From contig CM039003.1 of the NCBI GenBank assembly GCA_017499595.2, positions 3,038,001 to 3,102,000 on the forward strand: a stretch of DNA of 64,000 bases, written 5' to 3'. Position 1 is the first letter of the stretch; each line of letters opens with the position of its first letter. A program made the position numbers and the translations under genes. The notes under the pieces were generated by a model that did not search any database, had not been told where the DNA came from, and saw nothing but the letters and a program-made list of their open reading frames with translations. This DNA is from Psilocybe cubensis (taxonomy: Eukaryota). Below are positions 1-47,339 of the stretch, piece by piece.

Positions 1-1774
1 AATGTTATGTTCTGTGTATGGAGGCAACACTTACCATAACGAGAATCTCGTGGTAAACTTTGGACAGCGCCCGTTGGTCCGGCCGGCACTGAATTAACCC
101 AATCGACTGCAGAAGAACCACAGTTAAGATTAGATTCATATGATCTTTGAGAGTGCAAGTTGGCTTCGACTGGCAGCGAAACAATGAAGAGAGGAAAAAA
201 GTAGAACCGCGGTGTCAATGACGAAATAATTTGATGAAAGATCAAATACTTACATATTCCATGATTAGCGTATCCCGCGACGTAGTTAGAACTTTGCCAA
301 TGTATTCAATTGATGTAGGAGTTTTGGCAAACAAGGCGCCGCAAGCTTGCATTGCGCTCAACAGAAGAGGAGGGACTGTCTCCATTCTCCATGATGGGTG
401 GTGGCAGAGCGGAATCTGGTGATTGAACTCTGAGAAAAAGAGGAAGACTACCATGGATAGATAACAATTAGGAAACGTCCACTGTAATGAAATAATCATG
501 AACAAATAACATACGGTACTGGTTCAACTCCTCGGTGGTCGGATCCGTTTGCGCCGAGGAATGAGCAAAGGGAGAGGGCGTGGTTTGACTTGCTTGTGGA
601 ATTGTGGAGAAAGTATGTCTCAAAAAGGGCGATTTTCCAGATGAGGCAGGATTCAGGTTCGCGGAGTTATTGACAAAGTCCATATTTGTCGGTAGACAAT
701 GCGACTGCGAGTACAGGGACGGGTCGCTATTGCCGTATACGGCACTAGTCCGGTTTGTTTCGAACCAACCTGACAGATCTGTTTCGGTTTGGACTCGAGG
801 GACACACGGGGAATAGCCGTCCTCCACGAACGGGTCGACCGTGTTTGGGAAGTAGTCGTTGTTGTAGTCTGCTTCGAGTTCCAGCGCCTCGAAACTCATA
901 TTGAATGAGTTGGAAAGCTTGCGACCATCGAAGTAGTCCAGTTGCGGAGATGACCGAGAAGAGCAGGCAGATGAAGAACAAGCAGAAGAAGAACAATCAG
1001 AAGTCTGGAGACCAAATGAAGATCCCGGTAGTAATTGGCCTGTAGGAGGCGGAGAAACAAGATACGAAAGGTTATCTTGTTGGCCATGTGAGCCAAAGGA
1101 AAACGTCGAGGATGGACTGGATGGTCCCAGAGAGTCCAAGCTTGTCGTTGATTCCGAGAAGTCGCCTTCACTGGATACCACGGATGGGGCGGGTTTGCCC
1201 GCCTTTTTGGCGATTTTTCTATTGCGGGATGCCTCGGGATCGTTGATGAATACGCATTCCCTGCCTCGCGACGAGCATTTGGAACAAGGTTGCTGGAGAT
1301 TGCATTTAACTTTGGACTCTGCGCATGCCTTTTGGTCCTCGTGAGTTATCCTTCTGATGAATCAAAATGCGCAAGCGGGCATACCTGACACGACTTTCTT
1401 CTGGATCGATTCACATTTCTGCTTCACGATAGCATGGTTAGCCAAAGCTCTCGATGAAGATACACTGAACACATACGAGTCCCCACAGGTTCGCTTATGT
1501 CGCGTTAATAAATCGCTACGAGTAAACTCGGCATTGCATATCTGTTAATTGACGTCAAAACGGAGAAGTGGGGGTGGGTCTCCTGAGAGAATTCTTACAT
1601 TGCACCGATGTGCACGTTCGTTGGTGTCTATTAGACATTGCTCATGAGGTGCAAGATAGAAGAACTTTTGATAGTGAAAAGCATACGTGAACGAAGGTGT
1701 CTATTAAGATGCGTTGTTCGCGTGAATTTGGCAGGGCACAACGCGCAATATTTGGTTTGCGGTAGTGAAGGCAT
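1..1774 (-). CDS. Fungal transcription factor with two C2H2/C2HC zinc fingers, a Zn(II)2Cys6 cluster and a fungal TF middle region; 3' end runs off the window
   Basis: ATG at 1774. Spliced exons give CALCPAKFTRTTHLNRHLRS, CNICNAEFTRSDLLTRHKRTC and CQACAESKVKCNLQQPCSKCSSRGREC (C-x2-C-x6-C-x5-C-x2-C-x6-C). A Ser-rich linker (ORF 468-1181) is followed by the FSEFNHQIPLCHHPSW...AMQACGALF middle-homology-like region. Confidence 0.9.
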
Positions 1775-4165
1775 GTTACCTAATGACGAGTGCCACTTTG
1801 AAGAATAGACCATGCTGATAATAACATTTACGGACCTTTATGACTTCGCATTCTACTGACTTCGCCATTCGCTTTCAAGTCGATACTGTTTTTAATCGTA
1901 GTTTCGGTCAAGGGCAAGTGTGGCATGATGGTTGGAGGTTGTTGAGTAGGGGCAAAACGTTCCTTGTTATATAAGCCCTCTAGGTCACATATTAGTATTT
2001 TCTGTTAGCCCTGAGCTTCGCAAGCACCATTTACGGCGCAACCATCATAATCTCTGTCCCTTAAGCGAGGCATTCCATGGACATAATAACATCTTTACAC
2101 AGATCTCTCTCCAACAAACCATATCCCCGGTCCAACGAGATTCCCACAAAATTTCTAAACCAGCCTGTTCTTGACCGAGTTAAAAATATAAAGAGGCACA
2201 GAAACGGACATATTTGGCACTGCCCGGATGAATCGTGCGATCATATCTGCCGTCGGGTAGACTTGGGGTCGATACTGCAAGGGAGAGACTGTGTCTATGT
2301 TTGCATGTCAATATCATTCTGATCAATGCCCCTTGGTATATTTGCAACTTCGCGCCGTGACGCGGTATAGCACGGTAGATACCGTCGGTCTGAATCGCCC
2401 AGGAGGAATGACGCAGCCTCCGAATTCCGCATATCCCAATACGACAGTCATCTCTCCAAGTTAAAGCTTTAGAAGCCGAAGACACATAACTTACCAGTGA
2501 ATGGGAACAGGTGCAAAAAACACTCGAGCCAGCCAAGCGGATAAAAGTGACGAACTCAGATGCACTGCAACGGGCACAATGCACGCTGCATAATCGCTTG
2601 TGCTTCAGTTGAAATCTAGTAAGCTGTTGGCAAATCCGGTTCCAGGAAACCTGACGGATAAGGTGACAAATCAAAAATGACCATTATAAATGTCAAAACA
2701 GAGACTCGACAAGCGCACTCCCGATTGGTAAGACACCGGATGTGTAGGCGCCTGCTAGAACAAAGCGAGGGTTTGGAGAAAACAGTTTCATGGCATTGAA
2801 TCTACCTAATTTTTCTCAGCACAATAAACACAGATCAGTCATCGACAGCCTGTCTGCTTGAACTTGAGGATGAATCGGCTGGTGATTGGACAAGATCGTA
2901 AATGTGCGGTTGTATATATTCATACCCGCGATGGTTTACTAGCCGAAAAGGTGCACCTTAGGTTTATAGATTAATTTTGATACAGAGACACCAATAGCAA
3001 TGTCATGCACTTGAGTGTTACTTGAGTATTAAAAGCTATTGGTATTCGGTCGAACTAACGTCTTATCAGAAGCGGATTCATTCTCAATGATGATTATATA
3101 GTAAAGCACTTATCTCAAGCTTGATATCTTCAGGAATATAGACTCGGGTCTATGCAGGGCAAATATCGAGATCACCACATTGTGAAGCGGTTGGTAAATT
3201 GAACACGACGTAGAAAGATCATTCAAGTCGATGAATTGATATGATGATAGGGTTTACAATAATGGCGTTTCCGAGGAGGACCAACGCAGTTAGAATCTAA
3301 TCGAAATAGCATGTTTTCGGGGTTATGAACTTAACATCGGATAGTCCCACCGCTTGGGGGATCGCAACGGTCAAGCACTGGCAGTGACTGTGATCACTGA
3401 TGGAGTTGAAGAAACCCGTTGTGGGCGGGGTGATCACCTGATTTAAAAGCAAACACGTCCAAAGCCGTTGCCAATCTTCAGCAAATATGCGTCATCAACC
3501 CAAGCTCAGGGACGTTTCAGGGTCGCATTGCATCTCTGAATTTGACTTCGACCATCTTTGACATCTTCCTCGCAGGAGGCCAAGACGCAGCGCTTGCTTC
3601 ACTGGTTTTATAGTGGGTGTGGATGAAAGCATAAGTCTGTTTTTCTATCGCTACAATGTTTTCATATTCTCATCTCATCTTTAGAAAATTCACGTCTCCT
3701 GATTGATCATCACGATATCCGGCCTTGCATTCAGAACTTTTGAAGATACTCCTGATTACTTGTAGCTCCGTCAAATTTTATAGAAAATATTGAGGTGGGT
3801 AACTTACTATCGTGGACCTTTTTGGTTCAACTCTTTTTTGGTAGCAAAATATCTTAAATGATATAGCAGCACCATTAATTCGACTGACAACCTTTGTTAG
3901 TGTCAACCCCTAAGGCAAACGTACGATAAGGTATGCATCCTCCTCAGAAATCTTCTTGGATATGCGCAGGACGGATCATACACGAACGTTGAGTGTCTCA
4001 TCCACGTGCTAGTGCCACGCGTACACCTTGTTCTCTATATATGCTTGTTCGACTTTCAGTTTCTTGCCCAAGCTTCCAGAAGCCCTGTCTTTGCCTTCTC
4101 GTCGATTTCATTTGATTATGGTGCTACTCTCTTATATAAAGGCGCTCTGGAATTTCTAGGCAGGT

Positions 4166-7100
4166 ATGGCATCCAAATGCTCTAATCCCATCTTCTTGCC
4201 CGCTTTCGGGGGTCAAGGAACGTTGTATCAGGATTTGTTTGGTTACAAGACCGACCTGACCTCGCTCTCGTCCTTCGGAATAACACTGCTTTCTGCCTGC
4301 CATGCTGCCTTTCTGTCCGACCTTGCAGCGCTGGAGGTTCAAGAACTTGCTACTGTGGGTATATGCGCATCCGAATTTACGGAAAGGGAATCGCTTTTAC
4401 GCCCTCGTAATAATCTGTTATTCAACAACCCAGCATTCTGCGGTCCCCATTTATTGCTCAGTCAGACCCTCTTATACCTTTCATTTTCTGAACGTCATGC
4501 CGCGGCTTCGAGACCGATCCCATTTTTGGATATTCTAGGGTCTAACTCTCATTATGGCGTTGGAATTCTTGGGTTTTCATCTGGTATTATTGCTGCTTGC
4601 GTGGTTGCGTCGTCCTCGAACATTCTTCAATTCATAACCCACGCTGTCGACGCCTATCGTTTTGCATTTTGGATAGGAGTTCGATCCCAGCTTTACCGCT
4701 CAAGCCTTGTCGAAATAAGCGACGTTGCTCCGCATCCTTGGGCAATCGTATTAATGGGAACTAGCCGGGAGTGTCTACTAAGGTCTATCGAACATTTTAA
4801 TAAGGTATTTCATTCACAGGCAACAACAAAATTACTTGACGTTGAGCAGAAACTGTTCAAAGGATAGTGATATGGATCGCATTTTCTTAACAGCTGTACT
4901 GGACGATGGTCGTTATACTGTTTCAGGGCACCCTCGAGATCTCAATCTGTTTGTCCAAACGTTACCCAATGGCGTCGCTTCTCATGTTACCGCAATCAAC
5001 ACCCTTTATCATTGCCCTTCACTTCTCCGAGGCGTTCGTGATGCCGTTCTCCATGACGTTATGTCGAAGCAGATTAAATTTCCTACCTTCTTGGATTTGC
5101 TGGCGCCTATACGCTCTTCATTTTCTGGGGAACGTTTGTCCAACACCACGCCTGGATCTTTGGTCGAAACGGTAACTGATTTGATTTTAATGAAGCCTGT
5201 TCTTTGGGACGCAGTTCTTCATCAAACTGTGTCAGCTTTGCCGCCGGATAATCGTGTCGTTCTAATCGATATAGAACTGGGGCCAAGTCTTGTCCGAGGC
5301 TTTCAACTCACAGCTTGCCGTAATGGCATCCAGGACTTCCATACGGTATATCCGAAAGAAGAAGCTATGCCGACATGCGAACATAAGCAAGACCTAGTAG
5401 CTATAATTGGTATGGCTGTTAATATGCCGGGTGCCCCGTCAACAAGAGAACTTTGGGAAATTATAAAGGATGGCCACAACACTGTGGAAAAGGTTAGTGA
5501 TCATCTTATCTTTATTCTATTATGTATCCTGATAGATCTGTCTAATTACGCATACGCGCATAAGATTCCTCCAAATAGATTCTTATTTGAAGAAGGAGGC
5601 CGTACAATGCGGGCGAGAACGGGTAACTTCATCCATGATGTCGATCACTTCGATAATAGGTTTGTGACTTGAGATTTATTGCACGATTCATTGTAATTTT
5701 TTTTTGCTGGCGCAAGGTTTTTCAATATCAGTCCACGAGAGGCAAAAAGTATGGATCCACAACAAAGAATTTTGCTACACGCTGCATATGAAGCACTGGA
5801 AAATGCTGGCTATGTTCCATATGGTAGTCCAACTTTTAATCCAGCTACGATCGGTTGTTACGTTGGCGCTGCTACGCATGATTATGCCTTAAATTTAAGA
5901 AATAACATCGATGTTTACTACGCTACTGGTAAGTTCGATCAATGTTGTACTTCTTCAATTCATCTAACCAGTTATAAGGAACCTTGAACGCTTTCATCAG
6001 TGGACGCGTATCATATTGTCTTGGATTGAGCGGCCCCTCCATTGTTTTCGACACAGCATGTTCTTCTTCCTTTGTTGCGATCCACCAGGCGTGTCGTGCT
6101 CTCATGAATAGGGACTGTCATGTTGCTCTAGCTGGTGGTGTCAATGTCATCTCCAGCCCTGACGTATGTTCTCCGAGTAACCTAATACTGATCATGCGTT
6201 AACCTTGAACCTGATATTTATTTTGGTTATAGATGTTCATCGGTCTGGACCGAGGTCATTTTCTCAATTCGTCCGGGCAATGTAAGCCTTTTGATGCATC
6301 TGCAGACGGGTACTCTCGTGGAGAGGGATGCGGGATATTTGTCCTCAAACGCCTTACTGATGCGGTCCGCGAAAACGATCAAATCTTGGGAGTGATTAGG
6401 GGTGTCGAAGTCAACCAAAGTGGCAAAGGTTCATCCATTACCCATCCGCATTCTCCAACACAAGAGGAACTCCTCAAAAGACTTCTCATGAAATCGGATG
6501 TCGACTTTAATTCCGTCAACGTCGTTGAAGTTCATGGGACTGGCACTCAGGCAGGAGATACGGCTGAGATGGAAAGTATTCGGCGTCTTTTGCTAGCCGA
6601 TAATCGCGCGCCCGACAATCCCCTTTATATCACCTCAATCAAATCCAACATTGGCCATCTGGAGGCAGCGTCGGGATGTGCCAGTTTAGCGAAGATTTTG
6701 CTGATGCTCAGACATGAGATGATACCGCGACAAATTCCCTTATCAGCTTTGAACCCCCAAATCACACGTCTATTTTCCGATAAATGTATTCTCCCTACCC
6801 GAAACGTTCCTTGGATGCCGCCCAAACGCAAAACGCCGCGGATGGCAATTGTCAATAATTTCGGGGCAGCTGGATCAAACACGGCTCTTTTACTCCAGGA
6901 ATATGTCCCCCAAGAGTCAACAAGACCTGACGCAAGGGTATCCTCATACGTCTTTGGAATATCGGCAAAGGACGAGGATGCATTGGAGGCATTGCGCTCA
7001 AAATATCTATCGTGGTTACAGCGCCCAAGTACCCACGATATTTCGATTTTGGACATCGCATATACGTCAACGGCGCGAAGGCAACTTTTCTCGTATCGCC

Positions 7101-10100
7101 TGGCCACCTCTGCGGGCAGTATTGAACAACTTGTACAGAAGTTGGAAAAGGAATTGATCGTGCATGTGCCTTGTAACGAAGTCGGTCCTGAGGTCGTCTT
7201 CGTGTTTTCCGGTCAAGGTCACAAATCTAACGAGATGGCGCGTTCCTTATATAAAACATCAGCAGTTTTTAGACGCCATATCGATGAGTGCAATTCAGTT
7301 CTAATATCAAACGGATTTGCCCCAATCGTTCCCGTAATAGTTGGAAGTGGTGACGATCAGCATTTGGTGCCGGCGGTACAAAGAGAGGAAGTGATCCCAA
7401 CAGCAACATTTGCATTGCAATATGCCCTTTCGAAACTTTGGATTACGTGGGGCATCATGCCCGTCGCGGCCGTGGGCCATAGGTCCGTATTCCGACATAA
7501 TATCAATAGACTTGAGACTAAGGTGGCTAAACGTAGTCTGGGAGAGTATGCCGCTCTCGTAACGGCTGGCGTTTTGCGACTTGAAGATGCTATTATAATC
7601 GTTGCTACGAGGGCGCGTCTGGTGCTAGAACGATGCCCGCCGATGGCGACTGGAATGGTTGCCATTTCACTTGAACCTACCAAGCTACAGCACATTCTAG
7701 ACTCAAGCCAAAGCTTCGCAAACACATCGATTGCGTGCTATAACTCACCTGGAGACTGCGTAGTCTCTGGTCCTCTCCACGAACTTGAGGGCCTTATATC
7801 ATATTTACAAAAAGAAGGTTCTGGAAGGTTTACTCGACTAGATGTTCCCTATGGTCATCATTCTCCTTTGATGTCGCATCTGACAGGTGATCTTGTCGAA
7901 CTTGCAGGGAAGGCTATGATTTTTCCGCCACGCATTCCTTTCCTTTCCACTGTTCTAGGGCGTGTAATCATTCCAGGAGACCGGACATTCCTTTCTCAGG
8001 ACTATTTTGCTCGTCAATGCGTCGAACCTGTCAAATTTACGGAGGCGATTGGGTCTTACTTATCCAACTACTCAGGGAAGCGCATTTGGCTAGAAATCAG
8101 CCCGCATCCCATTATCTTGCCCATGCTGAGATCCTTTCCAGTCTTATCCGATTCTCCACTTTTAGCTTCGCTGCGCGCATGCGAAGATTCTTGGACATCC
8201 TTATCTAAAAGCCTTACCTCCTTTTACTGTCTTGGGGGGGAAACCGTACGTTGGCGAAGCGTTTTCGGCGAGATAGGACCTGCTAAATGCATTGGCCTAC
8301 CTTCTTACCCATTCAATAAGACTAGTTTCTGGGTTCCATACGTCGGCGGAATAGACCAGGATGGAAAAACGGCGCGAGGCGCACATTCCTCATTGATCAA
8401 AGAGTGTGTTCAGTTCCCAGGCGGTGGCAACAATAAAGAGGCTATTTTTCGAACTCCAATTAGTCAATTCAAACACTTCATCAAAAGTCATCTTGTGGGG
8501 GGAGTTCCTCTTTGTCCGGCATCAGTCTATCTTAAGATGATATCTGGAGCAATCAACCTAACTGCCGGCTACGCACTTCAGCATGTGGAAGACACTGAAA
8601 CTGTTATGTGTCAGCTCAGCTTCCCAAATCCTCTCATTTCGAACGACACATATTCCGACGAGGCTTCGATAGCGATTACTATAGACCTCTCAAACAAGTC
8701 CTTGTCTCTGGGGTCACGGGCAGCACTGGTAGAACCGCCTGTTACTCACGCGTCTGGAAAATATTACACTCAACCAATTATGGAAATAACTCGCCAGTTT
8801 GCTCAGATTTTTCCTTCGATTGTCGAGCGTGTACACACGATCGTAAGACTTGCCCGCCACCGAGGTTTGGAAACTTTTTCAGCTCGAACAATATATCGAG
8901 TTATATTCCCACGTGTGGTGGAATATTCACCAAATTTTCATACCATTCAGTCCCTTACAATGTTAGATGGTGGCATGGAGGCAGCTGGATCGATGGCCTT
9001 ACCGTCCGCTGAATACAATGCAGTTACCTCTCATATCGTCTTTCTGGATACTTTGATTCACGCGGCTGGCTTTCTATGCAATCTTCGATCTGGACAAAAC
9101 GATGCCTATGTCTGTGTTGGTATTGGTTCTCTGGAAGTTCTCTCTAATGCTATTCGAGAAGGAGTACCTTATACGGTCTACTGCAGAATCACGCCCTTCG
9201 AAACTGAAGAACTGGACGTGATGATAGGAGAGACCTGTATAATATCAGCTCCTCACTCTACTTTCCTGATCGCCCATTGCAAAGCCATCAAATTCCAACG
9301 CGTACGTATCAGCAGTTTAAAACGCAATCTCGGAAGCAAGCAGCGTGTTTCTGCTCTACCTTTAGACCATCATGGGTGCCCTTCCTTTTCTTCTGGCATC
9401 GTGGAGGTCGTTATAAACATGGTGTCTAAAGCATGTGACGTCCTGCCAGGAGATATATCTGTTAGCGCCGACCTCAAAAGCCTTGGTGTCGACTCTTTAA
9501 TGAGAATAGAGCTATCCTATAGTCTTTCGACAATGTTTCCAGGATATGGATTTAGACCTCAGGAGCTTTCATTATGCAAGACAGTTGCTGACGTTGTTGA
9601 ATCAGTGATATCAGCGCTTACGACCAAGGTTAACTTGGACGGCCTTGGGGAGAGGTCTTCAAACGTCTCGTCAAGTGGTCCTTCAACACCACGATCTATT
9701 GTGAGCTCAGATATTACGGGTCCCTCGGTGAAAAAGATCATAGCTCGTGCATTAGAAATCCATGAAGACAATATAAAGGATTACACCAAACTTTCCAGCT
9801 TAGGACTCGACTCTCTTACTTCCATTGAAATTGCCAATTCTCTCCGTCAGGAATGGAAAGTAAATGTTCCTGCAAATTTGTTCAACTCCTGTGACACGAT
9901 TTTGGATATCAAAACCCAGATTCCAGAACTTCAGCAATCAGTACCTTCAACATTAGTATGTCGATTTCCGCTCACCATTGAACGCCGTAATAACGATAGC
10001 TTGACATCACAGACATATTTTTCATTGTTGCAAACAGGGAACCCGGAGCATGTACCCTTAGTCTTAGTGCACGATGGAACTGGCTTGACAGGGCCTTATA

Positions 10101-10864
10101 CTCGACTTTCGAATTTAGGTCGTCCAGTATGGACGATTTCCAACCCATCCGGGCTGTCATCTCATATTTGGAGCTCTTTAGAGGAGATGGCTGAGTCATA
10201 TTCACGAACTGTGCTTCATAAAATACACGGTCCTGTAATCCTAGGAGGTATGTGACGGAGTTACAGCTATTTGATGTTAGATGACCTATCTGCAGGATGG
10301 TCATTTGGTGGAGTGGTTGCTTTCGAGATGGCGAGACAGATTCGAGAAAAATCTTTAGATGTTCTCGGTCTAGTCCTCATAGACTCCCCTTCACCTCTCG
10401 TCAGCGCGCAGCTCTCATCAGGCCTCATCGACAAAATAGTGAAACACTTGGAACCCAATGCGCAAGATTTTTGCAAATCGCAGCTGATGACAAATTCAGA
10501 ATTACTGAGAAAATACTCGCCATGGGATTTCACGCATAAGTATCCGTTGGTTTTCCTGATGTCAGAACAACCATACCCCACGTTTGACGATTTCGACATT
10601 CCAGCATGGCTGTCCGACCGTAGCAGTAAATCATCCGCAACCTTTGGATGGGAAATATTGTCCGAAGGACCCATTGAGACTTTCAGTATCCCTGGACATC
10701 ACTTTCAAGCGTTTGATCCGCAAAACGTCAGCATATCATCTTTCCTTTCTTCCCAGAGCCGCTGATAAACTCTTCTGGCACAGGTAAAGGCAGTATCGGA
10801 GTGCATTTCCAGAGCATGCGAAAACCTTGTGAAAAAATCGTTTTCGGTCATTAAACATGAGTAA
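4166..10864 (+). CDS. Non-reducing iterative type I polyketide synthase, SAT-KS-AT-PT-ACP-ACP-TE
   Basis: SAT: FGGQG and GFSSG. KS: DPQQR, DTACSSS, HGTGT, NIGH. AT: GQG, GHSLG after splicing, [19 protein letters not shown] and LDTLIH. Two ACPs: LGVDSL and LGLDSL. TE: HDGTG, GWSFGG, GHHF. Last exon 10784-10864 ends in TAA. Confidence 0.95.
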
Positions 10865-10962: not shown

Positions 10963-13463
10963 TTAATCCACCCATATGGGTTCAAAATTGAACAGAGGTC
11001 TTGGTTTATATTTCTTGCCTTTCTTCCGCCTTTTTTCGTCCTCGAATTCGGCCTCCATTCTTATCTTGACACTTCTATGGACCTTGAAACCATGTTTTTG
11101 TTTCGGGATGAATCGCGGGCGTGCCATATTAGATCTGGACGTCGTCTTTAGCAAATAACAAGGAGACATAAGAGCATGAACCGACGAACCCGAAATATGT
11201 CACCCATTGGTTGTCGCCTCTTTGATATCGTAGCGTTAATGGTATAATCTCCAGTGCCCACCAAGCTTTCTTAATCTTTAGTTGATCGTATGCGGGCGAT
11301 AGGATATCATGAAGTTCCTCTTCCTCCTCCGATCCCAGGAATGGCTTGCGAGGCTGCTTTAGGAGTGCCGTAATCTCGGCATGAGACAACTTGTTACCCA
11401 GCAAAGAGGAGGCAGGAGGACGTATAGGAAGATCACTTTTTGGACGGCTTTTAATGGTGTGCTGTTGGCCAATGGGCAGGGGAGGAGGTCTGGGAACGAT
11501 GTACGGATAGAGTGTGGATGGATCCAAACCAATATCATACAGGGCGGCGGAATTGAACATGATCCCAGTGTTGGCTTTGAAGCACTCGCGGACCATCCAT
11601 CGCAATGGAATTCTAGCCAAAGAATGTCGTGTCCTGTTGCTGACAGAACCGCCACCGACGTCTAGAGAAATTTGCCTGAGATTCCGAGTTGCGTTAAAAC
11701 ATTAAATATAGCTGGTATACTTACCACAGTGACAACCCTACATGGATGAGAAAAATTGATGCTTAAGTACAACTGACCACCCGGCTGGATAAAAGAGTAT
11801 AATGAAAACTCACCGCGAACCAGACTTCCTCCACATCTGTTGTCTTCTCATGCTTCTCTGAGTATATTCTCTCCAAGGTAGTAAGTACACGATCATCCTC
11901 GTCCTCTTTCTTCACACTCGTCTTCAGCAATGTGATCTTCTCGCTTAAGATACCGCTTTTAGATAGCGCTGGATCGTCGACACTGTCTTGTTTATCTGGC
12001 GGTGTAGTTTTAATGACGGGCGGGGGTCGTAGAGGCTCGGAATCTACGCCGGAGCTGAAAGTTGCAGTGTCAGACTCGAGACTCGCCTTCACCTTTGTCG
12101 TAGTCGTCGTCGTCGCAGTGGTATTTGACGTCGTAGAGTTCCTGCAGTGTGCATTATTTTGCACTTTGCTGGACGGTGTACGGTTCCATAGGTTGGCCTT
12201 GAATTTTGCCCGCCGCTCGTCTAGCGACACAGCATGCCGGAAGGTGCGAACAATTGTATTGGATGTCGTGAATGGCAATCGCTTGGGGATAAGACCAACA
12301 GAATCTACTGTATCCCTATTTGCAAAAGAAGAGGTTCAAACTCCTATTAGGCCATTCATTTGTATCAAAATACCATAGAGAAACCGACTTACCAGACCCC
12401 AATAAACTCGATGGACACATCAACAGAGAAAGCCTTTTTGAATTCTGTGGATTGTTGCCAGCCTTCATCGTCCGCTCTGGTATACATCTTGTATGCGAAT
12501 GGTACTTGTTGGAAATTTCCAGAGGGCAACAAACCAACTTTGTGGAGCATGCCTGCGAGACTGGAGGGATTGGATACATCAGGTTAAAGCAATTGATAAA
12601 GCAAGGAATCTCACCTTCGAGCTGTGTATGCCCCACGAGAAAATCCTGATTTACAATGTCAGAACGTACCACATCATGCAATGGCAAATGTAATTCAGTA
12701 CCGAATATACAGATTTTGTCTCCTGCCACATCTGGTGTGCAAATTAGTATCTCTCAAGCACTCTGTTTAAATAAATTCATACAGTTTTCCATGAGAAATT
12801 CATAACCGCCTATAAATGTGCTTGGATCAGCAAGTGGCTTTGAAAACCCAAACCTGGAATCATGATGCACGTACTCATGACATGTGAATCTAAGTTCAAT
12901 GCCAAAGCTCCGTCGAGGGCCTTTTGAAAGTGAGAAAAATTTAGGGATTTCAACAATGAACGACTTTACCTTCCTCAGCTGGGACAAGATTGGTGATGCT
13001 ATGTAAGGAGCAGTGTTATATGTCCCAATTCCTGTCTAAATTTCGTCCGCTCAGCGCTAGAAATGTTTAGAACGCAAAGGAAGACTGTGCTCACTTGATA
13101 ATACACCAATTGTTTCGTTTTATCATCCTTCTTTAGCAGAGAGACAAGTTTCACTATGTTCGAATTATCGTTGTCGAATTGATCACCAGTCCCATCGAAG
13201 CAAAGAATCAGAGTGCGGCTCGAGTGTTCCGGGGGGATCACATCCGGAATACGCTGGGGGCCTATCGTTCCTTCTCGTCGTACTGGTACGCGTTTCTCTT
13301 CGTGCAGTTGTGTGGGACTTGATCCTCTCGGTGGATGGGGGGATAGGTGGCTGTTATCATCCTCAAGAAACTGCCTGTAATCCGTCGGCGATGTCTCTGC
13401 CACTACCACAGTATCTGTAAGCGAAACACCCGTGGGCTCTTGTATGTGTTGATCCTGGGGCAT
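10963..13463 (-). CDS. DUF2235 (Tle1-like alpha/beta-hydrolase) protein, copy 1
   Basis: Motifs across exons: LILCFDGTG, FGFSRGAYTAR, GVWDTV, RHAVSLDERR, EVWFAGCHCDVGGG, LARIPLRWM. Confidence 0.9.
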
Positions 13464-13942
13464 GTTGGTTATGCTGGTATTAAGGAGGGTATATATTCCT
13501 GGGGGATTAAAAGAGGACCGCCGTCCCAGTTTCCAACTGTTTTTAAGCGCTGTGCGTGCCTCGGAATAGCATTATTATAGCATCTGACACGGAAATAATG
13601 GAGCCTGGGCGGAGGCGGGTGGGGTGCCAACTTACACTAACCCTTCTTGTCCAGCTACAGACCGATATGTCAGGGAATTGTAGCCTTTTGAGGGAGTGCC
13701 GATTACAAGTAAGAGGGCCCATTGGTTTCAGCCTGTCAAAATCTGATGCCAGGTGATCCCAAGTCTCCGAGAGGACTGATACCGAAGTGCAACGTCTTGG
13801 CACCGATGTGCATTTGTTGGAACAAAAGGAGCAAAATACGCTGATGCGCTCAGATGCGCTGTGTATAGATCCTGCCGTGTCGTGTATAGATGATGCCGGC
13901 TGGGCGCAGTGTTACTGTACGTTCAGGTTCATGGTTCTACTA

Positions 13943-16900
13943 TAGTTGGGGACACGCGAAGACATCAACTTTTTTCTGCTACCATGTATTATAGATAGAA
14001 ACGTGCAGAATGAGAATGCGAATCAGAATATGCAATTAGTTTTTTGTTTGCATAAAAACTTCCCTCGGAAATCTGGTTCTAAGTTTAGATAGGCCCAAAA
14101 ATTTCGCCAAATCCAAAACAATTCGCTAAAATCTCGGAAATATCATTTTTGGATAGTTCTCAAAGAGCTACATCTGATTCTAAATTTTCAAAAACTTTTA
14201 TCGAGCCGTTTCCTCAAAAAAAATTCGACAAAATGCCACCTAAAGGAAGGCCAGCAAAGAAGAAAAGAAATATATCAGGTCTACGGAATCAAGGATCCAG
14301 TGAATCAAAGCCTACAGATAGCAATCCTCCAAGTACATCATCTACATCACAGTCTTATCAATGGGATCGGACAACCATCAACAAAAAGAAACCCCTATAC
14401 GAGCTCAAAGAGGAAGCTAGTAGTGAGAAGGGCCTGTCTGACTCGGAATCTGAATCCGATCTCGAATTGGATGATGAAAATGATGGAATTGATACAGACT
14501 GGAAGGGGTTCATGAATGCCGAGTTCAAAAAGCGATTGGCCAAGCAATATTGGGACATCAAAGAAAAGGAGGATGATATGGAGTGGCTACCATACAAACT
14601 TCGTGTTATGGTTCAAGGAAAACAAGCGGTGAAAAAAGGTGTGTGGAAAGGTTACAATCGCTATAACATATTAATTTAACAATGGTCAATATTCAATAGG
14701 TCGACCGAAGGTTTACCAAAAGGGGCCTGATATTATGAGCAAGCCTGCTCGTACTCAGAGAGACCATAAAGAATTAATACGGAATCAGTCAAATCTTGAT
14801 CAATATCTCAATATGCCAATTCACTCACCTGGTCCCAGCACGCCAATTGTACCCCAAATGCGAAAGGCATCCGAGCGCAGTACTTCATCTCATGAAACAA
14901 TCGAGCCTGATTTAAGGTCCAACTCGTCAATTGAGATTTTGGAAACATCTGGGTTGCCGTTGCAAGAAGATACACCTGTACCGGAGTCCGAAATCTATGA
15001 AGAAACAGTCGATGACGAAAACAACAACAGTATATTTGATCAACAAATAGAAACAGAAATATCTAATCCGATTTCAGATCCAGAATCAGACTCAGAAAAC
15101 TACAATCCGCCGCCAGATTCTGATGATCAAATAGAGGATTGGGAAGAGGAACTGGCCGAGACTATTCAACCTGTCGAGATTAGGGATTGGAAGGTTCTTC
15201 GAGCCCAGATTCAGGAGGACATCAAGAAGGGTACAGACTCAAAACGTCTTTCATTATCTCAAATCAACAAACTCCTCATTATTTGCAACTTTGCCACACT
15301 TCGAATCAAAGGCTATCGTCGTATTGAAGCAAGCGAAATGCTGGCATTACAATGGCACTCTGGAGATGGTGTTTGGTTTGCTAGGAAAGTACGGAAGCTT
15401 GCGCACCACTACCAATTATTTGAACAGCTTCCTATTGAGCGGCGGGGTGGATACGGAAATGCACGCACATTGCTAAAGGATGAGATTGTCAAAAAAAGGA
15501 TACTGGATTATCTTCACTCGATAAAGACCGGAGAAGTAACACCAAAGAAGCTGCAGGTTGCCGTCAATACCCAAATCCTTCCCGAGCTTGATATCAAACC
15601 AAAAAAACCTATCAGCATTCGAACAATTCGTCGATGGTTAATCAAACTTGGTTGGCGTCACACCCAGATTAAGAAAGGGGTATATATGGATGGTCACGAG
15701 CGTCCGGATGTTGTCGATTATAGGCAAAACGTTTTCCTTCCACTAATGGCTCAATATGAAAAACGAATGGCAAAATATGAACCTAGTTCTGATGGTTCAG
15801 GCTTGATACGAGTGCCACCTACACTTCTCCCCAGAGAAAAGGAAATCATTCCTAATTTTCACAACGAGAGCACTTTCCATGGAAATGATATGGCAAACAG
15901 TGCATGGCTTTGTTCGGGAGAGCAGCCACTGCGAAAAAAAGGACGTGGCCGCTTGATTCATGTCTCTGCTTTTATCAATCCCGAGACTGGGCGCCTAATT
16001 CTTTTTGATTTGGATGGTAATGTTGTACGTGATTCTACTAAAATTATTTATCCTGGCACAGGCGGCGATGCATGGTGGGACTGCAATCAACTGCTAATGC
16101 AGATGAAAGATGCTGTTGACGTTTTTGAAGCTGCACATCCAGGCAAACAGGCGCTTTTCATTTTTGATCAATCTTCTGCACATGCATCCCTACCCGATGA
16201 CGCACTCAAAGCGTTTGAAATGAACAAGACAAACGGTGGTAAACAACGTGTTCAGCGGGACACAATTATTCCTGACACCAATCCTGTGGTCAATCTTCGT
16301 GGAAAATTACAAAAAATGACATTATCTAATGGGCAACCAAAAGGGCTTCAGCAAGTATTGGAGGAGCGGGGATTTGAAGTTGCTAATCTACGTGCCAAAT
16401 GCTCTCCAGTGTGTTCAATTGATAGCACAAATTGCTGCATGGCACGGCTTCTCAGTCAACAGGATGACTTCAAAAATCAACCTTCACGGCTAGAGACATT
16501 TATCAAGGAGCGGGGGCACGAGTGCATCTTCCTTCCTAAATTTCATTGTGAACTTAATCCTATTGAAATGGTGTGTACCAAATTTTTATATCATTCAAAG
16601 TTTTGTATTGACTCTTCTAGTACTGGGGGTGGTGCAAATATCGTTACCGTGAAATAGAAAAGAAAAACTTCCAGGAGGCAAAAGATGCTGTGAAAACCTA
16701 TTTGGCATCTTGTCCAACTGATGTTATTCGACGGTTCATCAACAGATCATGGAGATTTATGAGTGCGTACCGCCTGGGACTGACCGGACAGGCAGCCATA
16801 TGGGCTGTGAAAAAGCAGAAACAACATCGCCAGGTATCCCAGCGGGCAATGATGTCAATTGACGCGGTTCTCAACACGTGAATGCTCTTATCGATGATTA

Positions 16901-17097: not shown

Positions 17098-17681
17098 TAC
17101 TCAAAAAGATCCATATTCGAAGGTCTGTCACTGTGGCGCGTCGAAGATACTAGCAAATCAAGAATAAGTACAATGACGTCTAGATTGGCACAGTAAGAAT
17201 TCTTATTTGTTTCCAACCCACCAATGGCGATGCGAGACTCTCCAGCGTTCCCTCGGCTTAACCTAAGCACGGGGTACATCCGGTATCCACGGCAGTATTC
17301 CCTTGTGTTCCAAGCTTAGTGGGTGTTCGTAAGCCTCCAAAGCATACCTGTAAGAAAGGGCTATGCTGTGTATAGATTAGTACGGTTGGGATTAGCGCTC
17401 AATGTGAGTCATGGTGTCGCCTGTATTGCAAATACAGCTATGTAGCCAACTTTGATTAAGTGGTATGTAGTTCGTACCTTGAGCGTACGTAGTCTTTAAA
17501 TCCAGAAATACAAAGAAAGAATTTGGAGGTTTTAAAGTCCTACATACTCACGACTCTTTAGAAAGAATTAAACGTATCATCATGCATACTGACTGCAACT
17601 GAAAACACGGAACAAATAAATGTACAGTAAAGCATCGGTACCGGAATACTTAAAATGTAAATGGAAGGAGAACTTAGAGCA

Positions 17682-20042
17682 TCAGTCAACCCAGGTAATG
17701 TAGCTCTCATTGAGATCTGCCTTGGGGATATACGGGCTCCCATCTGGATATTTGGCATCCAACCGAATTTTGACGCTTCGGTGAACGCGTACCCCTTTCT
17801 TCTTTTGCTTAGGAACATGGCGGCCTCGTCCCAAATTCCAGTAGAACCAAGACGTCCAAGATCCGTCATCGCTCTCCTGCGTACGATGCCTGAGAGGGAG
17901 AAGCTCCAAGATCCACCATCCCCAGGCTAGACTGAGCTGATCGTAGATAGGTGCTAAGGCATCCTTGAGCTCAGCCTCTTCTTCCGTTTCAGCCATAACA
18001 TCGGACGCGACGTAGTCGTCATCGTTCGCCGCTACCTCTGGCTCCTTTGGTGTGGGTTTAATGTACGCTGTCGGACCAGTTGTCCCAGCGGATAATGGGG
18101 GAGGTCGGGGGCGGACAACGGGATACAGCATGTCAGGGTCCAAGTTGATTCCCTTCAGACCATCCGTATGGAACATGATTCCACTGTTTGTCTTGAAGCA
18201 TTCTCGAATCATCCATCTGATAGGAATGCGAGCCAAGTTGGGCTTGACGCCTGTCGCAACAGACCCTCCGCCAATATCTAGCAAAGAAAATCATCACTTA
18301 GCCTTTTAGGCCTCTTACAAGAGCTATAAATCATACCGCAATGACATCCCGCAAACCAAACCTGATGTTTTTTGGTTAGATTTTTCCAATGCGGACGAGG
18401 AGAAAGAGCGCATGCTATAGCCACTCACTTCGTCGATGTCCGTTTCCGCATTCTTATCCTTAGCGTATTGATTCTCCAACGACTTCAGCGAGTTCTTCCC
18501 ATTCCCGTCCTTTTTTTTCTTATGCGCACCACCTTCATGTTCCTTTTTCGCCTTCTTGTCGGTGATACTGAGGGTTGCCTCAGTTTTGTTTGGCTTGTTC
18601 CAGTGGTTTGCTTTGAACTTTGCCCTACGCTCATCCAGTGACACTGCATGTCTGAACGTCTTTACAACCGTATTGGAGGTTGTGAAGGGCAGGCGTCTGG
18701 GAATCAGACCAACCGAGCTGACAGTATCCCTTAAGAAGACGTAAACATAATTATGAAGGATCCAGGGGTTATAGGACACTCACCACACGCCCAAGAATTC
18801 GATATCAACATCGATGGAGAACGTCTTCTTGAAAGCGTTCGACTGTTTCCATCCGACGTCGTCCGCTTGAGTGTACATCTTGTACGCAAATGGCACCTGT
18901 TGGTGGTTACATGTTGGAAGGAGGCCGACCTTGTGGATCATGCCGGCCAGGCTGTAAAGATAGAGAGTAATAATTAGCTTCTGCCAGATACGTAGTTGAT
19001 GCAGTGTGTTCTAAACGCACCATCGAGCTGTGTAAGCGCCACGGGAGAATCCTATAAATAGTGTATGTTAGTCGTTATATCGATAACTGGGACGCCACCA
19101 CGACTTCTATATCCTCCATCCCCTCTCCACTGCCACCTTGTACTCACCAAAGATACAAATTCTGTCCCCAGCGCGGTCTTTTGCGAAATGAATTAGTACC
19201 TTGTGACATGTGGTGTGGGGATGCGAGAAGTAACGTACAATTTTGCATCAGAAACTCGTAACCGCCTGTTTATAGTATAGTGCAAAATTAGATCGATTCG
19301 ATTCTGGAGATAGCGAAGGAGTGGTAGGATATAATCGAGAACGTACCCATGATATGGGCATCAAGGTTCCACGCAATCATCATGTCCAAAGTCTGAAGTA
19401 GAACGGAAGACAATGAGCTCTAATATTGACAAACGTTTTTGCACAATGTTCATACCTGACTAATCTTCGACATGAAAGGGGTGGCGATCTGTGGGGTAGT
19501 ATACGTCCCAATTCCGGCCTGGAGGGAGTGTTACAGCTGTATTTTTCTTGAATCCTGAGGGTATTTACAACAGACATACCTGATAGTAGACAAGCTGTTT
19601 CTCTGGATCATCTTTCTTCAGCATCGCGAAGAATTCGACAATATTTGAGTTCTAGAGATGGAAAAGCATAACATGAGGAACTACCCCTTTCGCTGATTTA
19701 TTCCTCAACTTCAACTTACATCGGCGTCGAATCTAAGATAATAAAATATGTCAATGATTTATTTAGCTCCTCCATAAAATCATAGAAACTCACTGGTCTC
19801 CTGTCCCATCGAAGCACAGAACCAAGGTTCGAAAGGGATGCACAGGAGGGATTGTATCAGTATAGGGTACATACGCCGGCCCTGCTTCAAGGGGGACCTT
19901 GGGAGCCTGCTGAAAACCAGAAGAGGAGGGTGTCTGGACAAAGGTCCCATTCGATGTATACGTCGTCTGACTTGAGAACGTCTCTGTGCGCGTATGCGAC
20001 TCCGACTGGCTGCTCTCTGTTCTGATCATGGGGGATGCCATG
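17682..20042 (-). CDS. DUF2235 (Tle1-like alpha/beta-hydrolase) protein, copy 2
   Basis: LVLCFDGTG, GFSRGAYTAR, LGVWDTV, RHAVSLDERRAKF, VWFAGCHCDIGGG and LARIPIRWM. C-terminus ends in WVD as in copy 1. Confidence 0.9.
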
Positions 20043-22301: not shown

Positions 22302-23737
22302 TTAATTTGAAGGAAAAGTGATGGCCAATTCGCTACTGTTTAACTTCAAGATACCCTTCCTGATTAACATTTCGAGATGTTGATTATCCTCCAACATAGT
22401 GAGAATCTCCTGCACATCATGGGTCACTGTCTCTCCATGGAAATGCTGGTGTGAAGAGGTCATCAGCCTAATCTCGACGGAACGGAGACTATAGCGTCGA
22501 GCGAGCAACCATATAATATCCGTCAACGGCTTCCAATCCATCTTTCCCAGCAGGAGCACCGCATCGATGCTCAATGGCAACGTAAGGACGATAACTACAC
22601 TTCTGAGCTGAATGAGGGGCAGTGATGGCTTTTCGAGGAGACGGGTGATCCATGGTATGGGCGAGTAGAGCACGTAGGATGCGTTTAGTATCGTCGAGCC
22701 GTACCGGGACACCACCCGGGCAAAATCGATGCTTGCGGATATTTCGATGGTTTGCAGGCTGGTGAGCGAAGAAAGGTCCCAGATCTGCTCGTTGCTTGGA
22801 GATGATGTCCTATGCAGTTCATTGTAGGCATTTGCATGAAAAACAGTACGAACTTCGGGTGGTCCAAATGTGTTAGGTTAGAAGTTGTGAAAGGAAGACA
22901 GGTTTAAGCTACAAGCATACCTTGAGAGTTAACATTCATGTATAAGCTCTTTACTGAATCGGCTGGCTTTGAGTTCAGAAGGAGCTGAATGAGCGGGGCA
23001 TCATACAGATGTGTTAGGTGTATATGCAGAGCCTTCAAAGAGATTGTAGATGGGGTCTTTGGGGATATAAACCAGAAGATTAATGGTCCTAAATCTGCGC
23101 CAACCCCTTTAGACAGCTCAAGTGTGAGCAGGTTGGATAGTCCCTGGGCGGGAGGAGAAGGCAAGGCCAACGGTGAATGTAAACCCAACATTGCTGCCTG
23201 AACCCTGAGAAGCCTCAGAGTCTTAAGCGACGTGCAATAATCAAGAAGGTGCAGCGGAAATTGTCGCATGTCCTGGATCGTGAGGGTTTCTAGCGTTGGA
23301 AGACGGAGGATATGAGCAAACGATTTCTGAAATTCCCCGTGGAATATGATCCACGAGGCCATAATGTGATGACATCCACTCAACGATATCTCGGTAAGCT
23401 TCGGGAAAAGAGATATAGTATGCCCCAGGACCTTTTCACTTCGGATCCGAATCGATGTGTCGAAAATATATGTTTCAATGTTGAGTGACCGGACGTAAGA
23501 TGAAATGTGCGGCTTGTTTTGCAACAGTTTGGCCATCTGCTCTGCCGAGTAGGCCTCTGGGTATGCACGTAGCCCCCCGTGGTTGGTTATGGTGACTTTC
23601 CGGTAGAGATACTTTTCAACCAGCTCAGAGAATTGCTTGTTGACCCCTGCGCAAGATCGAAGACTCGCAGGACGATCGTCGTATAAGAACGAGAAGATGG
23701 AATCCCATAGTTCAGGTGGGAGCGTTTGAGGCTGCAT
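22302..23737 (-). CDS. F-box / LRR-like (RNI-like) protein, paralog A
   Basis: N-terminal F-box-like LPPELWDSIFSFL...LRSCAGVNKQF...LY, then LxxLxL repeats. One phase-1 intron after NSQG joins in frame to ORF 22302-22715. Confidence 0.8.
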
Positions 23738-24078
23738 TCGATGTAGAAAATGAGTCGGATGAGCCAGACGAAGAAAAACGTAATGTAGCACGAAGATTGT
23801 AGCTGAGAGTAAATCGCAATGACGCGGAAGCCAGTGTGACACGGGGAAACATGTGGGTGGAGTACGAAAATAACTCCCAAGCTTCGCCTCATGTTATCAG
23901 AGAAACCTCATAAACTTTTAAGTACGATTTACACTTTTTAACGAGCCCGTAAGTCAACCGAATTCTAGCCCTTGCTAATTATATATTACTCAAAAAATCT
24001 GGTGGGTATGCTACTACACAAATAAATACTATATCCAGGTTATACCGACAAGACATTTTAACGCCATACCTTGACAAC

Positions 24079-25839
24079 TTAATCCCTGCACGTAAGCTCT
24101 CCTCCAACCATTTCAATCGTCGCGCCCAAACACCATCCTAACTCGGTGCCTCTAATTTGTTTGCCAATATCGACAGGCCGCTTGTCTGCAAACTCGTACC
24201 CGAGCTGAAGCAGCGCGTGCATGAACGTCAAATCCAAGCACCACTCTGGGCGGCCCTCAAGCTCCTCCATTAGCTCCTTGTCTTTGCCCCAGGGCAGCGA
24301 GCGCCATTTCGTCGGGCCAAGGCACACGTCACGAGCGGTCGATGCGATGGTAGATACAGTTAGTGGAGTGCCGGATGGGATGAGAGGAGAAAGGCGGTCA
24401 TAGAAGTAGGAGAGGAGGAGGACTTTGCCGTGAGGGAAAGAGTCAAGCAACGATGGCTGATATACGCCGTTAAATGAACATGGTTTCATTTCGCAGATCC
24501 TATGTGATACGTTGTCAGGAATTCTTTTAAAAAACAATAGGAAAAGAATGAAAGAACTTACGAGTCTTTGGCAAGAACAAGTTGTACGATCCGGTCGCAG
24601 GCTTCAAAGGAACCGATTTCCTCGCCATCCATGGTAACGTTCTTCGTTACCTGGGTCACTTCATCTGTCACTTCCACCACACGCCTCGTTCCACGGCCCA
24701 GACACGGGTTGCCAATGATTTTCTCCTTCTTCTCCTTTTCCGACGGCGTTCTGATCGACGCCATAAAGTTAACAAGACTGTGCACATGCATCCTTGCACG
24801 CATGAGACCATAGCCGAGGTAGGAATGCTGGTACAGAGTGTGCGTCCTGCCACCAAATTTGAGTTCGTATTTATGCTCGCCCTCTTCAAGACGCTTGTCC
24901 GGCGACGTAAAAACAGGCTCGAATACGATCTGCGTCGACGCACCGCCGAGGTCGAGCACCGCGTGCGTTGTCATGTCCTTCGGAGCATCCGCCTTAATCG
25001 TCCCGAGCAGGTAGTTTGCAGTGATCCATGCGTACACGCCCTCATCTTTGCCATCCATGATAACCACACCATCCTTCGCGGCCAACTGAAACGGGTATTG
25101 GGCACGCAGTCGCTTCTCAATGGCATGTAGGATATCCGCGCTCTTCGATCCAGGAAGCAGACGAAGACCTGCCGTCGCTTTCACCGCTACAGGGGTGCAC
25201 TTGCGCAACGAGAGTGGGACGACTCTCAGCGCCTCGTCGAGCAGCACATCGAGGCTGCGAGCGGCCTCCTCCGGGTCATCTTTGTAGCTCGACAGCCCAG
25301 GTTGAGTCATCTTGAACGTCTCGTACTCGTATTCAGGAGATGGCCCGCAGTTGTTGAATTTGTAGACGTGGATGCGCGAGCCTGTGGACCCGGCGTCGAT
25401 CATGAGAGCGTACTGCACGATGGGGTCGTTTGGCGAGTGCGGCGATGTGCAATGTGTCGTCCGCGCAGGGTCATGGTCTGTCTCGAAGCTCGTTGGGTGC
25501 ACGAGTTCGGTCGGTTTGGGCTTTTCAATGATCTTTGGTGGCACTGCGATTGGCTCCGGGTCTGCTTTCACATCGTCCTCGTATGGATACGTGGATGAAT
25601 CTAATCCCATGAATAAGTGAAGGCTCTAGCGAACTACGAAACTTCGCACCTGTCGGCGTCGTTTTTGACTTCCAGGGTAGATTCTTCGTCTCCCGAGGCC
25701 CAAACAGGTATACTATGCCTATGAGCACAGCTGCAGCGATGGCAAATTTCTTCCATGCAAATCTCTTGGGTGACCCCGTCCTCGAGGGGCCATGCCCACC
25801 CTCCAAGCGCTCGTAGTTACTGCTCCTAGGCGAAAGCAT
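24079..25839 (-). CDS. GDA1: Golgi guanosine diphosphatase (GDA1/CD39 NTPDase family)
   Basis: All five apyrase conserved regions are present: IDAGSTGSR, ATAGLRLL, DGKDEG, DLGGASTQ, GWCLG. N-terminal signal anchor FAIAAAVLIGIVYLF. Confidence 0.9.
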
Positions 25840-27462: not shown

Positions 27463-27840
27463 ATTCCTATTCCACAAAGTAAATCTTTTTATAAAATAGT
27501 ATAATTCTGTCACTTCCGCCTATATCCCTTTTTTTATCTAACTTTCTATTCTCCTTATAAAAACGTTATTAAACCTAGTAGATATCTTAGCGTTTGAAAG
27601 GTGAGGGTCACTCACCCGCGCTTAGCACATCGATTGCTTGCTGCTCGATAATAAATAGATTACAAAAAAAAAACAAACTTACAAATTCGCTCAGCCGTGA
27701 CATAGACCGAGTTCTGTGTCACGTTTGTTACTACACTCAGACTCAACCAACTCAAAACAAGAAAGCATCGCCAATACCACCACTGCTGGAAGCTTTATAG
27801 GTTCCATAACCGCTAACATACTGTGCATTAAAGTCAAAAA

Positions 27841-29245
27841 ATGCAGCCCAATCTCCCTCCTGAGCTCCTGGACTACATCTTCACATTCATGAGGGATGAT
27901 CACCCTTCACTCCGAAACTGCGCATTGGTCAACCACAAATTCTCCAAGCTGGTAGAACGGCACCTCTACTATCACATAACACTTAACAATAGTGAAAATT
28001 ACGTTGGCCTTGGCGAGTTGTCTCCAGCCCAAATCTCCCAGATGTTTACGGAAAAAGTGCACCTGGTCTCGCATGTCAAGTCTCTGCGGATCGTCATGGC
28101 CTCGTTAGGTATACTTCGCTGGTTTACATTGCGCTCAATGGAGGACGAGGATATGGGGAAAGCGATGCTAGTTCTATCCCAGTTAACCAAATTGTCGTTG
28201 TCTGGCCGCCAGCATGGCATTATATCCTGGAACCGATTCCACCACCTCTTTCAGTCGTCCTTTGCAAGACTGCTACTGCTGCCATCTATGACTTCGGTTT
28301 CAATACACGGAATTGAAGATTTCCCACTTCCACTGCTCAGTCAATGTAAAAACCTCAAATCTCTATCCCTGCGTGTAGTGGATGACCCAACCTTGCCTCT
28401 CCCAACAATTCCTACCTCCGAAGCAGACATTCCTAGGCTTGAGTATCTGGAGATTCTCGAGTGCACATACGCCCTGCCATTAATACTGATATGGCTTCGG
28501 TCGCAAGGGTCACCCAAGCTGTGTGACCTGAGGGTGCTACGCATTATGATCCAACGCCTCGGAGATATCTCCTACATTCAAGATTTTCTGTCCGCAGATT
28601 GTGCCCAATCTCTGAAGTGCTTGTATGTAGGTGCCAACGATATAGGTACGTTTCAGCCTTAACTAATACTCAGTCCCATGCAATCTTATTTTCCTGTCAG
28701 CGCGCACAACATACAATGCCATCGGTGAAATCATATACCCACCTGACTCTGCCCCTCATCGAATTCTTGATCTTTCCTGCCTGCCCAATCTCCGCTCCCT
28801 AACACTTGAAGCAAGCGTCAAATCTACAGCCACGTACTGGATAAGCAGCAATGGGGAAGAAGACACGGAGACTTACAACTTACAAACACCCATACCGTGG
28901 ATTGTGGAGCACCTCCGCACGCTGTTCTCCGGATCTTCTCATCATGCGCAGAGCCTGGAGCGCATCATCCTCGAGCTTTCATTCGAGGTCGACAAACACG
29001 CGCTGACGAGGCTGGATTGGGGCCCCTTGGCGAGCGTGCTAAAGGCGTCGCAAATGTGGTCGCTACGCACAGTGCAGATCCAGGTTGTTGGATGCGAGCC
29101 CACGGGCGTGACGTTGGAGACGTTGGAATTTGGATTGCGCCAGGACAAATATCTTTCAGAGATGGTCAAAAGTGGGCTTTTGGCGATCGATACGACGCAC
29201 TGTCCTAAAGAGGCGGCACCAGTCAAGGCGTGGTGGGGAGTTTGA
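27841..29245 (+). CDS. F-box / LRR-like protein, paralog B
   Basis: MQPNLPPELLDYIFTFM...LRNCALVNHKFSKLVERHLY. Collinear with paralog A, including the single phase-1 intron. Confidence 0.8.

Positions 29246-40702: not shown

Positions 40703-47339
<6,637 letters not shown>

Follow-up and report, generated by a model that had tools for sequence, protein, structure and literature searches.

Mushroom polyketide synthases of the non-reducing type (NR-PKSs) split into two clades, VIII and XII, which have a common ancestor (Loehr, 2023). Clade VIII enzymes have the domain order SAT-KS-AT-PT-ACPn-TE, in which the number of ACPs varies, and the five characterized members, namely ArmB (Armillaria mellea), PKS1 and PKS2 (stereaceous BY1), PKS63787 (Antrodia), and CC1G_05377 (Coprinopsis), are all orsellinic acid producers (Loehr, 2023). 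In contrast, clade XII, which includes the Cortinarius enzymes CoPKS1/4 and CrPKS1-3, is defined by the lack of a SAT domain, and its products are hepta- and octaketides (Loehr, 2023). The regulation of basidiomycete natural-product genes is still largely unknown (Seibold, 2024; PMC11046786), and no mention of a transcription factor (TF) linked to any of the characterized clade VIII enzymes was found in the accessible text of Loehr (2023) and Doerner (2022). Each Psilocybe cubensis genome carries one NR-PKS, which is close to ArmB-like orsellinic acid synthases (Doerner, 2022). Here we analyze this single NR-PKS locus in a 64,000-nucleotide stretch of P. cubensis contig CM039003.1 (the window), where the PKS gene is divergent from the gene of a TF with two types of DNA-binding domain, both genes being intact.

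In ascomycete gene clusters, a pathway-specific TF and the core synthase may be encoded head-to-head with a shared promoter region. The two P. cubensis genes, encoded on the minus (TF) and plus (PKS) strands, have the same arrangement in the window, adjacent and divergent, and the region between them is presumed to be a bidirectional promoter. Unlike ascomycete clusters, the P. cubensis 'cluster' appears to comprise two genes only, the pairing persists in different orders of Agaricomycetes, and the TF is unusually invariant in its DNA-binding region. A sequence-only reading of this DNA had proposed a dedicated regulator-synthase module sharing a divergent region of approximately 2.4 kb; the divergent arrangement holds, whereas the start codons are 2,239 bp apart (1927-4165), and the dedicated pair itself is strengthened by conserved co-location in other species. 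On balance, we consider it probable that the TF is a pathway-specific activator encoded beside a tetraketide (orsellinic-acid-type) synthase, a reading in which we infer both the regulation and the product.

Co-location was assessed by proxy, using the species name and an identical length of the contigs bearing TF and PKS matches, with 116 of the PKS matches listed (BY1 PKS2, which has no contig, and three others were left out) and 113 of the TF matches listed (nine were left out). Among these listed matches, 45 species have both proteins, and in 29 of them (28/44 without P. cubensis) the TF and PKS lie on contigs of identical length, compared to approximately 1.9 species expected by chance when genomes are taken as 40 Mb. 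Four of the shared contigs span only 34.8-38.9 kb and come from Tephrocybe rancida, Tricholoma furcatifolium, Sphagnurus, and Pluteus, and the pair bears neighboring locus tags in Tricholomella constricta (D9615_006798/006799) and Leucocoprinus birnbaumii (NP233_g904/g905). The linked species fall in four orders: Agaricales, to which P. cubensis belongs in the NCBI taxonomy, Russulales, Gloeophyllales, and Jaapiales. The sequence-only reading had named a lack of conserved adjacency in relatives as part of the result that would speak against a module; the co-location found across these orders points the other way.

In a FastTree phylogeny of the 113 TFs, two paralogous groups were resolved, and every linked TF falls within one orthogroup. 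As an internal control, the other paralogue was found on the PKS contig in none of the nine genomes holding both paralogues. This second group, which has the same domains, is present, for example, in Polyporales, Serpula, Amanita, and Lyophyllum, and it never lies on a PKS contig in this set. All named matches listed in the TF homologue searches belong to Agaricomycetes, and a search of representative proteins with the TF returned 196 proteins at E up to 1e-30, the lower ranks of which are multi-finger proteins.

The translated TF part at 516-1328 (minus strand) is a 100% match to the GenBank protein 'Zinc finger protein klf1 [Psilocybe cubensis]' (P0121, 761 aa); residues 1 to ~485 of the 761 are encoded in the window, the edge of which cuts the gene. 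On P0121, Pfam identified two C2H2-type fingers together with a Zn2Cys6 cluster and, at residues 378-588, a fungal_trans domain (71 bits, cut-off 23, E 1.1e-19). The second finger (residues 68-89) is a C-x2-C-x12-H-x3-C variant scoring 32.1 bits with zf-C2H2 (cut-off 25.2), and the first (residues 40-63) is marginal in Pfam (zf-met 21.5 vs 21.2). An alignment of 29 orthologues shows no variation at six of the eight finger ligands (C42, C45, H54, H58, C70, and H86) and nearly none at C73 and C90; of the six Zn2Cys6 cysteines, four are invariant (C106, C113, C119, and C122) and C103 is nearly so; C129, which is invariant and close to the cluster, may be the sixth cysteine. Both types of DNA-binding domain named by the sequence-only reading are borne out by Pfam and by this conservation of ligands. 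A start codon at 1813 was considered and dropped in favor of 1926 because the orthologues conserve the N-terminal segment encoded from 1926. The acceptor of the fourth intron (1418-1421, minus strand) is a tandem AG..AG three bases apart, and the GenBank model takes the downstream AG, leaving one residue fewer than in most orthologues. The Psilocybe cyanescens orthologue (P0122) is tagged 'LOW QUALITY PROTEIN', and the region of its second finger is scrambled in the alignment.

The translated PKS part at 6233-10247 is a 100% match to the GenBank protein 'Type I Iterative PKS [Psilocybe cubensis]' (P0001, 2081 aa). In our gene model, GT..AG introns were chosen to leave the frame open, and its sole difference from P0001 is 18 aa kept in the latter from an in-frame intron; since the GenBank model reads through this intron (7483-7536), these extra residues fall inside the AT motif GHSxGE, which is contiguous in 111 of 119 PKS homologues. 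The domain order determined with Pfam and NCBIfam on P0001 is SAT-KS-AT-PT-ACP-ACP-TE. The GFSSG motif of the SAT domain recurs in 98 of 111 aligned PKS sequences, and in the PT region the Pfam dehydratase-type matches score under their cut-offs. A motif check found the whole set of catalytic motifs in an intact reading frame, so that the layout and intactness claimed earlier are confirmed by Pfam, TIGR04532, and motifs alike. Norsolorinic acid synthase and CTB1, through their SAT-KS-MAT parts, are among the solved structures nearest to this PKS in sequence.

PKS phylogenies comprised a FastTree of 111 full-length sequences, from which nine matches under 1,900 aa were dropped, and an IQ-TREE quick tree of 46 sequences and 2,058 columns. 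The P. cubensis PKS lies in a fully supported, long-branched, separate clade of 12 Agaricineae sequences with partners from Galerina, Gymnopilus, Agrocybe, Flammula, Pholiota, Cyclocybe, Panaeolus, Crepidotus, Phlegmacium, and Crassisporium, and 9 of the 12 are TF-linked. The characterized BY1 PKS2, a match at 39% identity, pairs in the unrooted IQ-TREE with an Armillaria protein of ArmB length (SH-aLRT 94), and the two adjoin TF-linked Russulales PKSs (SH-aLRT 99). The P. cubensis enzyme resembles clade VIII in its domain order and in sharing a tree with BY1 PKS2, and it differs from the characterized clade VIII enzymes in its separate long-branched clade and in unusual AT and PT substitutions. 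With the Cortinarius clade XII enzymes it has in common that it is a basidiomycete NR-PKS, but it does not fit that clade because its SAT domain is present (E 4.2e-20, GFSSG). Membership in clade VIII, the orsellinic-acid-synthase type, is likely, with the published placement in its favor (Doerner, 2022), and only likely because the trees are unrooted and contain neither clade XII nor ascomycete sequences. For a synthase of this probable type, a tetraketide would be the likeliest product. The sequence-only reading had described such layouts as mostly orsellinic acid or anthraquinone-precursor synthases; the first part stands, whereas the second does not, clade XII being without SAT (Loehr, 2023). 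Its description of the polyketide as uncharacterized holds in that the product of the Psilocybe NR-PKS is unidentified in print, although the PKS itself had already been noticed (Doerner, 2022).

In the mechanism that we propose, the TF would bind the shared intergenic region and turn on the PKS gene, and perhaps also its own gene, as a pathway-specific activator. Acetate starter and malonyl extender units would be loaded by the AT or SAT domain, the polyketide chain would be cyclized by PT and released by TE, and the resulting aromatic acid would be small, in all likelihood orsellinic acid or a closely related tetraketide, with any tailoring genes sitting elsewhere in the genome. Between the two genes, the six open reading frames (ORFs) of at least 61 aa gave no Pfam matches, and a motif search of 1927-4165 revealed no notable repeat or enriched 8-mer, yielding just short two-copy repeats, 8-mers in no more than three copies, and a few CGG/CCG pairs, none of them usable unless compared with orthologous promoters.

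GenBank entries for both genes already exist, the PKS has been mentioned in print, and a divergent TF-synthase pair is ordinary in kind. The terms 'transcription factor', 'regulator', and 'zinc finger' do not occur in the main text of Doerner (2022), and no description of a TF beside a basidiomycete NR-PKS was found in the main texts of the literature searched. The TF is a good candidate for the switch of the PKS product, and co-location across four orders makes this testable in many mushrooms. A bolder proposal, tentative and somewhat short of probable, is that clade VIII PKSs throughout Agaricomycetes have their ancestral, dedicated switch in the C2H2-C2H2-Zn2Cys6 orthogroup, which would have stayed next to its target from a time predating the divergence of Agaricales, Russulales, Gloeophyllales, and Jaapiales. 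If this were true, no pathway-specific regulator of a mushroom natural product would have been known before to be so widely conserved, and the TF would offer a general means of waking silent mushroom PKS genes.

Several observations weigh against a pathway-specific activator paired with an orsellinic-acid-type synthase. Co-location rests on contig identity as a proxy, with order, distance, and orientation read in the P. cubensis window, and the PKS trees contain no ascomycete or clade XII outgroup. In 16 of the 45 species, among the matches listed, the TF and PKS lie on different contigs, and the TF therefore persists without linkage; these species include Armillaria, Amanita, Hohenbuehelia, Gloeophyllum trabeum, and several with highly fragmented assemblies. 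The DNA-binding region of the TF is almost invariant over four orders, and identity to Galerina marginata is higher for the TF (69-70%) than for the PKS (53-55%), a degree of conservation unusual for a narrow pathway regulator. In addition, the P. cubensis PKS departs from its homologues at 22 of 362 near-invariant columns, ranking second of 111 sequences (median 5); G1321S adjoins the catalytic histidine of PT, Y919S lies within the GQGxxY motif of AT, and the product may be other than orsellinic acid. Given the long branch of the PKS, its departures, and the high conservation of the TF, the TF could act more broadly and the product could be an altered one in Psilocybe.

The first of these would mean that the linkage is real while the TF is a broad regulator, acting in development, stress, or carbon use, with the PKS at most one target or a long-standing neighbor. 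The near-invariance of the DNA-binding region, conservation exceeding that of the PKS, and retention of the TF off the PKS contig in the 16 species would all agree with such a protein, and a Laccaria factor named by homology, LbCmr1, a possible orthologue, belongs to the core TF set induced in ectomycorrhiza (Daguerre, 2017). However, shared contigs in 29 of the 45 species against the chance expectation, together with 0/9 for the paralogue, are hard to explain without a functional tie, and some of the 16 misses are on contigs shorter than 35 kb, where assembly breaks could mask linkage. We regard a broad regulator as fairly unlikely.

The second, which we hold to be distinctly unlikely, is that the P. 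cubensis PKS has changed in function or come under relaxed constraint, so that its product would not be orsellinic acid or would be scant. Its terminal branch in the IQ-TREE is long (0.68 vs 0.26 for Galerina), five of the eight departures checked (G351E, Y919S, G1321S, E1337K, and P1504I) are found in P. cubensis only, P1504I lies near the PT aspartate, and no orsellinic acid derivative from Psilocybe is reported in the accessible text of Doerner (2022). The reading frame and all catalytic motifs are nevertheless intact, and the majority of the departures are conservative. Among the 120 PKS matches listed (735-2342 aa), none is from P. cyanescens.

The sequence-only reading had also taken the combination of C2H2 fingers and a Zn2Cys6 cluster to define the Cmr1/Pig1/Amr1 regulators of dihydroxynaphthalene (DHN)-melanin, while cautioning that the architecture occurs in a wider fungal family. 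The caution agrees with the data at hand and the definition does not: factors combining a Zn cluster with C2H2 fingers occur in 140 of 191 fungal genomes, with up to 23 genes per genome, and are described as 'ubiquitous in fungi' (Shelest, 2017), and in the protein atlas numerous distinct ascomycete clusters have these three TF domains, so that this architecture is not diagnostic for Cmr1. The C2H2-C2H2-Zn2Cys6 order of the TF is that of Cmr1p and Pig1p (Shelest, 2017, citing Tsuji, 2000) but does not discriminate. Compared by architecture, the TF resembles Cmr1p/Pig1p (Colletotrichum, Magnaporthe) and Amr1 in that a single protein combines two C2H2 fingers with a Zn2Cys6 cluster, and it would share with Cmr1p/Pig1p the control of a PKS pathway. 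Unlike in those systems, the neighboring PKS is probably not of the melanin type, and the surroundings scanned showed no genes of a melanin pathway. A Pfam scan of the downstream side of the PKS, the region past the TF falling beyond the window, detected within 13 kb no gene for a methyltransferase, P450, prenyltransferase, reductase, or dehydratase, and none for a naphthalene-type PKS or scytalone dehydratase; the lone short-chain dehydrogenase (SDR) of the window is 45 kb away (55798-56726). The TF-PKS pair is also found in Lyophyllum, Hypsizygus, and Tricholomella, which are pale, white-spored genera. Although the tandem-ACP layout and the naming of the Laccaria TF after Cmr1 by homology (Daguerre, 2017) agree with a pigment module, in which the TF would correspond, in basidiomycetes, to the ascomycete DHN-melanin regulators, with the PKS supplying a naphthalene-type or other pigment precursor, the ubiquity of the architecture, the orsellinic acid type of this PKS family, the lack of tailoring genes in the 13 kb scanned, and the pale genera make it very improbable; the Cmr1/melanin framing is not supported, and nothing points to the pigment suggested earlier.

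Table 1. Features of the TF-PKS locus and of the remaining part of the window.
Feature	Position	Strand	Details
TF gene, 5' two thirds	1-1926	-	eight exons in window; remainder beyond window start
TF exons	1926-1836, 1779-1687, 1627-1599, 1541-1477, 1418-1385, 1328-515, 447-254, 170-35	-	chain reproduces P0121
Two C2H2-type fingers, intron-split	1488-1753	-	first: residues 40-63 (1753-1623); second: residues 68-89 (1610-1488)
Zn2Cys6 binuclear cluster	1236-1393	-	residues 102-135, one intron inside; Pfam Zn_clus 29.3 bits vs cut-off 21
fungal_trans (middle homology) domain, first part	36-442	-	runs on past window start
Divergent intergenic region shared by TF and PKS	1927-4165		2,239 bp between the two start codons
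Non-reducing PKS gene	4166-10765	+	8 exons, 7 introns of 48-72 nt; 2,063 aa; match P0001
PKS exons	4166-4804, 4863-5492, 5565-5659, 5717-5928, 5979-6163, 6233-7482, 7537-10247, 10296-10765	+	
SAT domain	4529-5012	+	GFSSG (GxSxG) motif; Pfam SAT E 4.2e-20
Ketosynthase (KS)	5397-6739	+	motifs DTACSSS, HGTGT, NIGH; KS-N E 1.8e-77; KS-C E 4e-33
Acyltransferase (AT)	7196-8125	+	GHSLGE once intron 7483-7536 is spliced; E 5.6e-36
In-frame GT..AG intron retained in GenBank PKS model	7483-7536	+	54 nt; splits AT active-site motif by 18 residues
Product template (PT)	8423-9334	+	HxxxGxxxxP motif; TIGR04532 PT_fungal_PKS E 3.5e-51, 174.5 bits vs cut-off 168
Tandem ACPs	9494-9910	+	Pfam PP-binding, two stretches, E 3.6e-18
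Phosphopantetheine serines of ACPs	9494-9496 (GVDSL), 9812-9814 (GLDSL)	+	motif search
Thioesterase (TE)	10055-10522	+	GWSFGG motif; Pfam Thioesterase E 5.9e-14
Tle1-like/DUF2235 hydrolase-domain genes, two	11129-13571, 17558-19010	-	Pfam; first convergent with PKS
Intronless 660-aa ORF between both hydrolase genes	14675-16657	+	no Pfam match
F-box proteins, three	22904-23893, 27832-28662, 35551-37404		Pfam
GDA1/CD39 phosphatase	24079-25625		Pfam
Fasciclin protein	33889-34937		Pfam
ABC transporter fragment	41139-41501		Pfam
Glutathione S-transferases (GSTs), two	49005-49853, 60509-61393		Pfam
Short-chain dehydrogenase	55798-56726		Pfam; only SDR, 45 kb from PKS
GH127 fragment	62210-62560		Pfam

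Within 13 kb downstream of the PKS gene, the scan revealed nothing beyond the two hydrolase genes and the 660-aa ORF. This ORF is placed by the protein atlas at 0.97 beside a basidiomycete cluster in which 31% of the members have a DDE_3 transposase domain, and the clusters adjoining this ORF carry that domain in 31-42% of their members. As a lead only, the ORF at 14675-16657 may be a DNA transposon.

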